Shown here piece after piece: positions 9,424-11,787 of a DNA stretch of 64,000 nucleotides (within the stretch, counting starts at the first letter, position 1; the number at the start of each line of letters is the position of its first letter). Origin of the DNA: an uncultured Verrucomicrobiae bacterium (GTDB taxonomy: Bacteria; Verrucomicrobiota; Verrucomicrobiia; Chthoniobacterales; Xiphinematobacteraceae); NCBI GenBank assembly GCA_963706715.1, contig CAVPNI010000003.1, positions 736,001 to 800,000 of the forward strand. Direction: 5' to 3'. The notes beneath the pieces are model-generated. The model was not told the origin of the DNA. It did not search any database and saw only the letters and a list, made by a program, of their open reading frames with translations. Position numbers and translations under genes: made by a program.

Positions 9424-9452
9424 TATCAACTTCTACCCACTAACTGAATGGA

Positions 9453-10760
9453 TTAAATATTGGGGACCAGGGAATAACCATGTTTTGTTGCGAGTTTAGA
9501 AAGAAGGCGTTTTTGGGAGAGAGCAACCTGCTCATGGTAAACTTCGAGGCCCCTTTCAACGTAGGGGAAGCCGTGTACCATAACGCGCCAAAAAAGGACG
9601 GCCAACTTACGAGCCAGGGCTTTATTAGCAACTAATCCACCGCGCCGTGCACGCAATCGTCGATAGAAACCGCCCAGAGCCTTGTTTACACTGCGGGCAA
9701 GAGAACGGGCTACCACACAGAAAATGCGACCTGCTCGATTGCGACTTCTAGAACATCTAGCTTGCCGCTTACCACTTTGCTTGCTGCCAGGAGCTAATCC
9801 AAGCCAAGCAGTAAAATGCTTTTCACTTTTCCAGCAGGTCAAATCGGTACCTACTTCACCAATCAACTCGAGTAGACCATAGTCGGTAATACCGGGTAAG
9901 AGCGTCGGATCCTTTCCCTTACAAAGAGTCATAAGTAAACGGTGGAGATCTTTAATTTGAGGAGCATTGCAGCCTCCAATCCTTTTTGTTGCGCTGGGAG
10001 TTGAGGGAGGCTGAAGGCCTTGAACACTTTCCTGTAATAGCTCTTCTATGGCTTGGTCACATTGCCTAACGAGCTCCTGGCAAAAATGCCATGCATCATA
10101 AGCTTGTCTAAGGGCAAAGAGATGCTGTTTGGTCCAAGTCCCACGCAAACTCTCAATTACTCGATGGCGCTTTGCCCTCTGAATCTGGAGGCTACAAAGA
10201 GAAAGCAACACTTGAGGATCACGCTCGCCCTTTAGAATGGCTTCAATCACCTTAAGTCCACTAACTCCGGAAAGTGAACGAATTACGTCATGAAACTTGA
10301 TATTCATGCGTTCCAAGGCCTTCTGCATATGCTGTACATGGCTAGCTGCTGCTCTGATATGATCGCTTCGCAAAGGCAAATAATCCTGCAACTGCCGAAT
10401 ATTGGCCTGAGGTACAAAACCACCTTTTAATAGGCCATGAGCATGCAAAGTTGCTATCCATTGGCAGTCGGCCATATCCGTCTTCCTTCCAGGTACATTG
10501 CGTACGTACTTACCATTAACCACTTTTATCTCTATGCCGCTCTCCTCTAAAATCTCATACAAGGCTATCCAATAAACTCCAGTAGCTTCCATTGCCACCG
10601 TACACACCTCTTCTTGAAGTAGCCAATCGCGCAGGGCGTGCAACTGACTGGTAAAGGTTCCAAAAACCTTAGGTGCTCCTCCGGCAATAGAAACATGCAT
10701 GTGTTCACTGCCTACGTCTATTCCTGCCGCTTTTAAATTTAGTATGGTCAGATTTTTCAT
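9453..10760 (-). CDS. IS110-family DEDD transposase/recombinase
   Basis: AGIDVGS, VAMEATGVYW, GRKTDMADC and LGLAPGSKQSG motifs. Confidence 0.95.
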   Translation of the reverse strand: MKNLTILNLKAAGIDVGSEHMHVSIAGGAPKVFGTFTSQLHALRDWLLQEEVCTVAMEATGVYWIALYEILEESGIEIKVVNGKYVRNVPGRKTDMADCQWIATLHAHGLLKGGFVPQANIRQLQDYLPLRSDHIRAAASHVQHMQKALERMNIKFHDVIRSLSGVSGLKVIEAILKGERDPQVLLSLCSLQIQRAKRHRVIESLRGTWTKQHLFALRQAYDAWHFCQELVRQCDQAIEELLQESVQGLQPPSTPSATKRIGGCNAPQIKDLHRLLMTLCKGKDPTLLPGITDYGLLELIGEVGTDLTCWKSEKHFTAWLGLAPGSKQSGKRQARCSRSRNRAGRIFCVVARSLARSVNKALGGFYRRLRARRGGLVANKALARKLAVLFWRVMVHGFPYVERGLEVYHEQVALSQKRLLSKLATKHGYSLVPNI

Positions 10761-10780
10761 TTTTTAGTTATCAGTAACTT

Positions 10781-10962
10781 GTAAGGTGTGCTCAGGCCAA
10801 AGCTGCCGGTCCGTTGACATATTGTAGACAAATCTACCCAGCGGGAAACTTTGCGTTCTCCAAAAAATACGTGTGCAGCGGACCGGAGCCAATCTACGAT
10901 GCGGGCTTTTTACGCTCCATAGAAACGCCGGCCATTTTACAGCTTGACCTGAGCAACCTTAC
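10781..10962 (-). ncRNA. putative bridge/seek RNA of the IS110 element
   Basis: Long enclosing stem (GTAAGGTGTGCTCAGGCCAAAGCTG with CAGCTTGACCTGAGCAACCTTAC) and two homologous internal loops (AATCTACCCAGCGGG, AATCTACGATGCGGG on + strand) upstream of the transposase. Confidence 0.7.
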
Positions 10963-11022
10963 CCTACTCAGTTAGTGGACTAAAATACGAGTCCTTTGGA
11001 CTTGATGGCTACGAACCACCAA

Positions 11023-11787
11023 CTACGAACTGACAACTGTAGCGATACCTTCGCCATCCTTCCATTCGGCCAGGCGAGGCGTCACATCACGTTGAGCACA
11101 AAAAGCTACATCTCCGTGTAATGCAGGAACCGAAAAAAGACGTTTGGCGTTGTTCCCTTTTGAAATACCAGCAAAAAGATTTCCTTGCTCTTGCAGATAA
11201 GCTGCTCGGGCGAGTTGTGCGGCATCATGCAAATTTTTTTCGTCTTTCTGATGTGCTAATAGATCGATAGATGCCCCGGCACATAAAACATCTTCGTACG
11301 CTACATTTTCTTCCGTTCCTGCACAGACCAGTAAGATTTGAGAAAAATCGGCCCGTTGGATGTTCTCAACGGTAACACAAAGATTGAGAAACGAACCGAT
11401 AAAAATTCGTGCGGCTCCCAAACACGCGCATAACGCGCGCGTGCCGTTTGTCGTTGTCATCGCTATGGTCTTTCCCTCCACATTCGAACGAATGAATTCT
11501 CTGGGAGAATTTCCAAGATCGAAGGGAAGACTCCCCGTCAGTTCCTCTCCAATGAGTACTCCATTGCGTTCCCCAGCCAACAGGACTTCCGGCTGCTGTT
11601 GCTTTATAGCCAAAGCATCCGAAATTTCCCTTACGGGAAGGATCACTTGAGCCCCGTTGGCGAGCGCGGTCACCATCGTGCTCGTCGCACGCAAAACATC
11701 AAAAACCACGCATACTGTTTCGCTCAAATCGCGTTGGGGAAGATTTTTTATCTCCGAAGGCGAGAGAATTACTTCAATAGTTTTCAC
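11023..11787 (-). CDS. comB: 2-phosphosulfolactate phosphatase family (start set at GTG 11787)
   Basis: VVFDVLRATST, LAGER, LGNSP, TTTNGT and EDVLCAG motifs. Confidence 0.85.
   Translation of the reverse strand: MKTIEVILSPSEIKNLPQRDLSETVCVVFDVLRATSTMVTALANGAQVILPVREISDALAIKQQQPEVLLAGERNGVLIGEELTGSLPFDLGNSPREFIRSNVEGKTIAMTTTNGTRALCACLGAARIFIGSFLNLCVTVENIQRADFSQILLVCAGTEENVAYEDVLCAGASIDLLAHQKDEKNLHDAAQLARAAYLQEQGNLFAGISKGNNAKRLFSVPALHGDVAFCAQRDVTPRLAEWKDGEGIATVVSS

Follow-up and report, generated by a model that had tools for sequence, protein, structure and literature searches.

An IS110-family insertion sequence with a predicted two-loop bridge RNA matching a dispersed heptamer repeat of its Verrucomicrobiae host

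The window analysed here is a stretch of 64,000 nucleotides (nt) from an uncultured Verrucomicrobiae bacterium (GenBank assembly GCA_963706715.1, contig CAVPNI010000003.1, positions 736,001 to 800,000). It carries, at 9433 to 11008, an insertion sequence (IS) beside an array of short repeats, and the locus raises the question of whether the guide RNA of an RNA-guided element can be read from its DNA and how far that guide accounts for the sites the element occupies. An earlier note, made from the letters of the window alone, had proposed an IS110 element with a bridge RNA aimed at the host repeat. The locus is very probably explained by a recently active IS110-family IS that encodes a two-loop bridge (seek) RNA upstream of its DEDD recombinase gene. 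This reading is based on the anatomy of the element, the junctions of its copies, the covariation of the RNA stems and the covariation of guides with flanking DNA, all of which were observed here.

The letters CTAC stand at 9433-9436 and again at 11009-11012, and the DNA between them is an insert of 1,576 bp, a length that counts one copy of a CT/AG core. Genes are on the minus strand, so the left end (LE) lies at the high coordinates and the right end (RE) at the low ones. The boundaries and the sites that define them are as follows.

9433..11008, or equally 9437-11012, minus strand: insertion sequence, delimited by comparison with the empty site and by identical ends in five full and six deleted copies
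9453..10760, minus strand: transposase/recombinase gene of 435 amino acids (aa), with DEDD (RuvC-like) and Tnp domains (Pfam, NCBIfam)
47147..47165, plus strand: paralogous empty target site, TCAACTT-CTAC-GAACCACC, uninterrupted
11009..11036, plus strand: flanking heptamer array CTACGAA-CCACCAA-CTACGAA-CTGACAA, whose first CT (11009-11010) is the second core copy

The earlier note had placed the element at the CTAC of TCAACTT-CTAC with an empty form at 47147-47165, where an uninterrupted copy was indeed found, but its outer boundary at 11042 was too distant: the element ends at 11008/11012, and the additional 30 nt are part of the flanking heptamer array. Comparison of the occupied with the empty site revealed site-specific insertion without target-site duplication and a short core common to element and target. 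The LE comprises 252 nt (10761-11012) and the RE only 16-20 nt (9433/9437-9452), giving a long LE that holds the RNA and a short RE. A DNA search of 20 related genomes did not find the element, except for 59-nt fragments in one. At the orthologous locus of the same-genus genome G001 there was no IS, no copy of the 262-bp repeat that neighbours the element in the window and no heptamer array, and no junction was obtained.

The 435-aa open reading frame (ORF) matched PF01548 (DEDD_Tnp_IS110; residues 12-152, E 1.3e-18) and PF02371 (Transposase_20; residues 288-366, E 3.1e-10) in Pfam, as well as the NCBIfam model NF033542, 'IS110 family RNA-guided transposase', at 217.5 bits against a cut-off of 140. 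An alignment of the window protein with 16 homologs (17 sequences) contained invariant columns D15, E58, D95, D98 and S329-G330, with a GL-P----SG motif in its consensus; D15/E58/D95/D98/S329 were equated with D11/E60/D102/D105/S241 of IS621 from PMC11208158 and a partial alignment. Among transposase relatives, 7,900 of 8,000 scored candidates reached E <= 0.001, and protein identity was 63-73% among the 120 relatives listed, the genome's own copy aside. Plasmid searches returned 402 matching records, all below 60% identity to the transposase, and the annotated entries among the 85 plasmid matches listed were named 'IS110 family transposase' or close variants. The domain layout, the catalytic residues and the insertion without target-site duplication are all those of the IS110 family, to which the element belongs, and it probably works like a bridge/seekRNA element.

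The minus-strand RNA of the LE folds into a long outer stem around two homologous stem-loops, each with an internal loop, as the earlier note had described. The minimum free energy (MFE) is -90.5 kcal/mol (z = -4.7; one of 200 shuffles folds as well), and the RNA ends about 35 nt 5' of the transposase ATG.

10797..10948, minus strand: bridge RNA core according to the covariance model, with the outer stem extending to about 10791-10952 in the single-sequence fold

In order to follow this structure across relatives, a covariance model (R1) was built from 16 upstream regions, with the structure checked by hand, and was searched against the window plus 80 genome-contig loci and then against 80 metagenome-contig loci. 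The model matched the window at 97.9 bits (E 1.2e-20) and yielded 67 matches in the first set and 76 in the second, nearly all just upstream of an ORF and a few representing tandem second copies. It reached elements whose transposases share only about 35-40% identity, and it matched the genome of the window exactly five times, once per full copy. Across 59 distinct sequences of the first set, standard pairs occupied 94.7% of cells, compared with 72.2% in shuffles and 32-44% with slid partners. Compensatory changes were present in 26 of 31 pairs, and the observed covariation score was reached by none of 500 shuffles. Rfam, searched in evalue mode over 9000-11500, returned five weak matches far below gathering scores and no bridge RNA; the miRNA-like matches at 9306-9380 are spurious and correspond to the 262-bp palindromic repeat.

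The first of the two loops would read the target.

10887..10933, minus strand: target-binding loop, basal stem to basal stem
10894..10900, minus strand: 3' guide of the target loop, AUCGUAG (UCGUAG at 10899..10894)
10921..10926, minus strand: 5' guide of the target loop, GUUUCU(A), whose CU faces the core AG and whose UUUG would pair with the top-strand right flank

Its basal and apical stems were paired in 98.6% and 99.0% of cells, respectively, across the same 59 sequences. In gene orientation the target reads ...GGTTC-GT-AG and then the right flank, while the 3' strand of the loop reads CCCG-CAUCGUAG-AUUGG. The segment UCGUAG equals the left flank plus core of the top strand and would pair with CTACGA on the bottom strand, and GTTCGTAG adjoins the LE in all 11 genome copies (gene orientation). 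The complementarity of this loop to CTACGA, proposed in the earlier note, was therefore present, matched 11 of 11 copies and covaried in about 130 relatives. For the relatives, DNA lying 45-110 nt upstream of the RNA was taken as the target, and the AG-terminated guide 7-mer was matched against it. Cognate matches were perfect (7/7) in 89 of 132 elements and at least 6/7 in 122, compared with 35 and 473 (3.7%), respectively, of 12,926 non-cognate pairs, making cognate matches approximately 25-fold commoner. There were 67 distinct target 7-mers among 128 distinct RNAs, which, together with 24 distinct donor 7-mers among the same RNAs, indicates programmability. On the 5' side of the loop, flank base 1 was paired in 63 of 110 relatives (non-cognate 0.28), base 2 in 53 (0.31) and bases 3-5 in 37-41 (0.22-0.25), and in several relatives this guide pairs perfectly over 5-6 nt of the right flank. 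The two target-loop segments match opposite strands of the target and overlap at the core.

A different kind of target was observed in five verrucomicrobial and Chlorobiaceae relatives (L024, L028, L039, L070 and L079), which insert right after GGTTCATGGnnAG, a sequence resembling their own right end. Some of the relatives inserting there are arranged in tandem, and L028 and L045 give two RNA matches each. These flanks and tandems suggest targeting of an element's own or a sibling's end.

The second loop carries a guide for the element itself.

10806..10886, minus strand: donor-binding loop, basal stem to basal stem
10834..10840, minus strand: 3' guide of the donor loop, UGGGUAG, identical to the final 7 nt of the RE, core included

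Basal and apical stems of the donor loop were paired in 88.9% and 96.8% of cells, with compensatory changes in 13 of 14 pairs. The RE ends in ...AGTTAGTGGGTAG, or in gene orientation ...AGTTAGTGG-GT-AG, and the 3' strand of the loop, CCCG-CUGGGUAG-AUUUG, corresponds in sense to the DNA on the left of the crossover with AG added, which makes the bottom strand its expected partner. When compared with the DNA after the ORF, the cognate 3' guide matched at 7/7 in 112 of 132 elements and at 6/7 or better in 123, whereas non-cognate pairs did so in 63 and 956 (18%) of 5,372, respectively. In L029 the RNA and the RE alike carry TAGGTAG instead of TGGGTAG. The earlier note's claim that the UGGGUAG loop complements the element end is thus borne out by the string at 10840..10834 and by the RE match in 123 of 132 elements.

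The 3' guides also define the core, since those of the two loops end in AG in 127 and 126 of the 128 distinct RNAs, while at the two preceding positions the loops carry the same bases in only 11 of 128, close to the chance value of 1/16. With AG conserved and the preceding bases at chance, the core consists of the two bases AG, which read CT on the opposite strand. The four bases shared at the window locus, which the earlier note had taken for a 4-nt core, are a coincidence that arises because target and donor both happen to carry GT before AG. Its further claim of sub-terminal inverted repeats, despite the upstream position of the RNA, was confirmed by a perfect 11-bp repeat.

10968..10978: left sub-terminal inverted repeat, TCAGTTAGTGG, 30 nt inside the LE
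9437..9447: right inverted repeat, CCACTAACTGA, with only GT and the core AG between it and the RE tip
10990..11002, minus strand: LE hairpin AGTCC-AAA-GGACT, starting 7 nt from the LE tip and terminator-like in the scan

The repeat extends to 20 nt at 80% identity. Among 111 relatives with both ends located, 107 carry it at 6/8 or better, and it measures 8-11 bp in the clade. Its left copy lies 28-37 nt from the LE tip in 106 of these 107, and on the right only two bases and the core intervene between repeat and tip. In most relatives the stretch from the LE tip to the donor word described below starts with about six unpaired bases, followed by a hairpin of 4-7 bp whose sequence varies; folding of 92 LE segments gave a mean z of -1.22, with z below -2 in 28.

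The 3.04-Mb genome (G000; four contigs) contains 11 copies of the element, five of them full and six belonging to one deletion lineage. The five full copies differ mutually at 1 of 1,580 positions, and all 11 copies are bounded by CTAC...CTAC at the same junctions. Four of the deleted copies share an identical 200-bp deletion, and two more add a second deletion and nested insertions. All six have three SNPs (single-nucleotide polymorphisms) in common that occur in none of the full copies, and they occupy six different loci.

C1:112442-113821, deleted copy in G000
C1:149474-150853, deleted copy in G000
C1:553040-554419, deleted copy in G000
C4:92725-94104, deleted copy in G000
C1:781271-782628, deleted copy in G000
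C4:373050-375809, deleted copy in G000

The deletion covers element positions 103-302 (equivalent to 10711-10910 in the window) and takes out the donor loop along with the target loop's 3' half and 16 codons from the start of the gene. Deleted copies at six loci without donor loop and start codon must therefore have been mobilised in trans by full copies, and the six represent one lineage that kept moving. One full and one deleted copy lie 10 nt apart in the same heptamer array (C1:147884-150853). The end points of the deletion, at 10711-10714 and 10911-10914, are two TACG words (CGTA in gene orientation), and the inner end reads ACGTAG|G, which agrees with the target guide AUCGUAG at 5 of 7 positions and places AG at the junction. 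The deletion could have originated by slippage or by an off-target recombinase event.

The repeat into which the copies have inserted is dispersed through the host genome. Arrays of 3-5 units of CYRMNAA occur 80 times in the genome and not once in a reversed-sequence control, the commonest heptamer unit is CTACGAA (80 occurrences), and CTACGAAC is found in 47 arrays. The proposal of a guide aimed at a dispersed host heptamer repeat therefore stands. All 11 copies lie in the heptamer repeat at CTAC|GAAC; insertion of other copies at unrelated sites, which the earlier note had named as the outcome that would speak against it, was not found. A host repeat as target is a feature shared with IS621, which reportedly uses a REP (repetitive extragenic palindromic) repeat, going by the title of Choi et al. 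2003. The unit string TACAGTTGTCAGTTCGTAGTTG also overlaps the stop codon of an ORF ending at 11023.

Together these features would give the following course of events. The 3' strand of the donor loop, UGGGUAG, would pair with the right end of the element and the core, recombination at the shared CT/AG dinucleotide would allow entry without target duplication, and the programmed word, being the commonest unit of the host heptamers, would offer a large choice of insertion sites, mostly between genes. Production of the RNA, its binding by the recombinase, the chemistry and a circular intermediate are predicted for this element from its homology to IS621, ISEc21 and the IS1111 elements.

Several observations weigh against guidance by the predicted RNA or reduce the force of the evidence for it. 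The LE and RE of the relatives were located by way of the 3' guides themselves, and only the contrast between cognate and non-cognate pairs is informative. The pair counts derive from alignments fitted to the model and from non-independent relatives, and their shuffle statistics overstate significance; to judge from the aligned sequences the stems are real despite these generous statistics. No sigma-70-like promoter was detected in 10700-11100 of the integrated LE, in a scan that did not include a circle-junction promoter, and no RNA segment complementary to the LE tip was found by eye or in an all-against-all column scan, the candidates from the latter being scattered signals at the level of phylogenetic background (z ~6). 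At the target, the guide base A preceding UCGUAG is mismatched at 11 of 11 sites, and the right-flank guide makes only 0-1 of 4 Watson-Crick pairs in 8 of the 11 genome copies, pairing in the remaining three (the window copy and two others) only if G-U wobble is counted. Of the earlier note's likening of UUUCUA to the target CTTCTA, the string is thus present, but pairing with the right flank is confined to those three copies. Furthermore, GAAC follows CTAC in 11 of 11 insertions as opposed to 192 of 1,035 free CTACGA sites (18.5%), a bias with P ~9e-9 under a guide-only model.

The GAAC bias, the unpaired right flank and the mismatched A imply that something beyond the readable guide shapes site choice or survival, and a second determinant of site choice probably acts. 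In its stricter form, that the RNA sets the site only partly and a second determinant restricts insertion to CTACGAAC in heptamer arrays, this explanation is a serious contender, if one to be held tentatively. The determinant could be recombinase contacts, the DNA structure of inverted arrays, or better survival of intergenic insertions, and the right half of the guide would then be largely dispensable, a 'half-match' that the element appears to tolerate. Base composition next to the site is consistent with such a determinant: of the 203 CTACGAAC sites in the genome, which include the 11 IS junctions, 85 are preceded by AA and 33 by TT, compared with 8 and 1 of the 11 insertions, so that the TT-preceded sites, which fit the guide, are not favoured. 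The arrays, moreover, are often oppositely oriented (10 adjacent pairs), and the empty site is bracketed by heptamer units that form a perfect inverted repeat of 22 nt (TACAGTTGTCAGTTCGTAGTTG and its complement, 47110-47131 / 47165-47186). Precedents are found in two preprints, namely a target stem-loop as second determinant for ISPpu10 (10.64898/2026.03.19.712850) and half-match recombination in IS621 (10.64898/2026.08.31.748434). The sample is small, with 11 sites of which three lie beside paralogous flanks, and selection after insertion could alone produce the bias. A second determinant would in any case complement RNA guidance rather than replace it, as the left-half guide matches all copies and covaries family-wide.

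How the other side of the donor is recognised was considered next to the RE guide. The earlier note had found the second donor guide not obvious, but a candidate exists in the 5' side of the donor loop.

10864..10871, minus strand: 5' side of the donor loop, CGUAUUUU, candidate second donor guide
10982..10989, minus strand: LE sub-terminal segment CGTATTTT, 3 nt outside the left inverted repeat

The loop word CGUAUUUU is identical, in the same sense, to LE 10989..10982, and this sub-terminal LE word covaries with it across the clade. A longest-common-substring comparison of the donor 5' loop with the LE gave weak enrichment (mean 5.05 vs 4.46) and was superseded by a register test in which the DNA was anchored at the inverted repeat, located from the RE and so independent of the loop, and the RNA at the stem. 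Identity over ten positions was 0.504, compared with 0.312 in shuffles, at offset 0, with no other tested offset near it; over the seven best positions, identity in register was at least 5/7 in 67 of 94 distinct elements but in only 9 of 5,218 dissimilar non-cognate pairs. The shared word varies by lineage (CGTATTTT, CGCATTG, GCGTATTG, CGCACA, ATCGA, GAAATGTTT, GGCTTG, TCCGGTG). RNA-RNA pairing between the donor 5' word and the loop's distal 3' strand, which occurs in the MFE fold of the window element, was judged by eye to be absent in L024 and L028 and was rejected.

Because loop and LE words have the same sense, the loop word would pair with the bottom strand, as the 3' side of the loop does at the RE, and RNA-DNA pairing is the likeliest meaning of the identity, reasonably probable on the sequences compared. 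The alternative, that the identity stems from shared ancestry, marks a promoter or leader element, or reflects a protein-binding word that occurs twice, and that the true second donor guide is something else or absent, appears unlikely, though it has points in its favour. The sense is unexpected, as both donor strands would address the same (bottom) DNA strand, unlike those of IS621, which pair with opposite strands (PMC11208160); fixed-register identity drops in distant relatives, which form small classes; and the shuffle controls ignore phylogeny. Pairing is preferred here in view of the joint change of the shared word in many lineages, the excess of cognate over non-cognate matches and the prominence of the single offset. 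A last alternative, that the LE structure is a mere 5' leader for translation or stability of the transposase and its flank matches fortuitous, has in its favour that the structure lies directly upstream of the start codon and ends about 35 nt before it, but is highly improbable given that the matches track 67 target words with the cognate excess noted above and that the family is annotated (NF033542) and experimentally shown elsewhere to be RNA-guided (PMC11208160, PMC11187229).

The bridge RNA element was then compared with published systems. With IS621 (PMC11208160, PMC11208158) it shares a DEDD and Tnp recombinase, an RNA encoded 5' of the gene within the LE, two pseudo-symmetric internal loops with the target loop first and the donor loop second, and, at least for the target loop, the reading of both strands around a CT core dinucleotide. 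It differs in protein length (a 328-residue chain in the PDB entry, 435 aa here), in a core that reads AG in gene orientation, in inverted repeats of 11 bp instead of 2-3 bp with the left one about 30 nt inside the LE, and in that no LE-tip guide was found in the window element. A single-sequence search of the PDB gave no match at E <= 0.01, and a profile of the clade matched IS621 weakly (E 5e-7), indicating only distant protein kinship.

The loops of IS621 and ISEc21 have a 5' strand that recognises the bottom DNA strand and a 3' strand that recognises the top one (PMC11208160, PMC11208158, PMC11187229); IS1111-type seekRNAs show the opposite arrangement (PMC11187229). The window element and its relatives have the 5' side directed at the top strand and the 3' side at the bottom, and so depart from the IS621/ISEc21 order. 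ISEc21 resembles the element in an upstream non-coding region that yields a guide RNA and in a short RNA matching both target strands, but its match to the bottom strand precedes the one to the top strand and long sub-terminal repeats are absent (PMC11187229), as opposed to the reversed order and 11-bp repeats of the window element. The IS1111 types ISEc11, ISPa11 and ISKpn4 share with the element a top-strand match 5' of the bottom-strand match and sub-terminal inverted repeats (7-17 bp there, 11 bp here; PMC11187229), along with the GL-P----SG motif, which is also present in the window clade. Their RNA, however, lies downstream in a long RE, whereas here it lies upstream in a long LE with an RE of at most 20 nt, and their transposases have 330-350 aa, compared with 435 aa here, which falls in the IS110-proper range of 395-455 aa (PMC11187229). 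ISPpu10 resembles the element in that all copies lie in one host repeat and site choice appears to go beyond base pairing, but was mapped with the IS621 pairing logic and has a CT core in gene orientation (10.64898/2026.03.19.712850). Within the clade, some relatives from Ralstonia and Cupriavidus have a GC-rich hairpin, CTCCCGC..GCGGGAGAG, immediately before their insertion point.

By sequence, then, guide order and sub-terminal repeats are IS1111-like, RNA position and transposase size are IS110-like, and the element fits neither published subgroup definition cleanly; PMC11187229 mentions a few exceptions to these definitions. A literature search, with figures and bioRxiv supplements outside its range, found no upstream-RNA clade combining long sub-terminal repeats with a sub-terminal donor word, although the clade may well be covered already, in Supplementary Table 5 of Durrant et al. 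or among the clustered bridge-RNA variants catalogued in 10.64898/2026.10.21.760802.

The surroundings of the element are rich in other repeats. A 262-bp internally palindromic repeat at about 9163-9425 lies 7 nt from the window IS, and of its four further genome copies (about 98-100% identity) one lies 135 nt from another IS copy (C1:782763). Two degraded IS copies contain a nested 244-bp element resembling a miniature inverted-repeat transposable element (C1:781973-782214 and C4:373752-375395 in G000), which is bounded by terminal inverted repeats (AGCAAGGCCCGTATAAAATGAT... and complement) and recurs almost unchanged dozens of times across the genome; on C4 a multi-copy element of about 1.4 kb adjoins it. 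The same-genus genomes G003 and G004 are single contigs of about 0.9 Mb compared with 3.0 Mb here, and the genome of the window is rich in repeats and mobile elements compared with these. Within the transposase ORF, a 15-nt word at 10252-10266 is 93% complementary to the LE inverted-repeat region 10970-10984 and in gene orientation resembles a second RE-like end (AGTTAGTGGACTT).

Insertion sequences with bridge RNAs are a known kind, of which the window copy is an unusually clear natural example: its target and donor words are directly readable and were checked against 11 junctions and about 130 relatives, and the element is tuned to the commonest unit of a host micro-repeat. Its non-autonomous derivative implies action of RNA and enzyme in trans, with the sequences needed in cis confined to the RE and the first 102 nt of the LE. 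At the level of the clade, with its 67 target words and its mixed IS110/IS1111 layout, in which the left end has a hairpin-bearing 30-nt "extension" and a donor word lies next to the inverted repeat, the arrangement may amount to a new variant. A bolder proposal, quite doubtful at present, is that the element represents an uncharacterised IS110 clade of very large size, with thousands of homologs, whose donor recognition differs from that of IS621 and relies on a folded or single-stranded junction, and that this clade is an evolutionary intermediate between IS110 and IS1111. The strands of the donor loop would then read two same-strand words about 30 nt apart, the RE tip with the core and the sub-terminal LE word, which flank the junction and a conserved small hairpin in a region bracketed by the 8-11-bp inverted repeats. 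One may speculate that the inverted repeats form a stem whose loop is clamped by the guides, instead of the bent duplex donor of IS621, a thought prompted by two preprints on single-strand intermediates (10.1101/2025.10.25.684509, 10.64898/2026.08.31.748434). If this donor reading is true, it would widen the design space of bridge recombinases and bear on the question of double- versus single-stranded intermediates.

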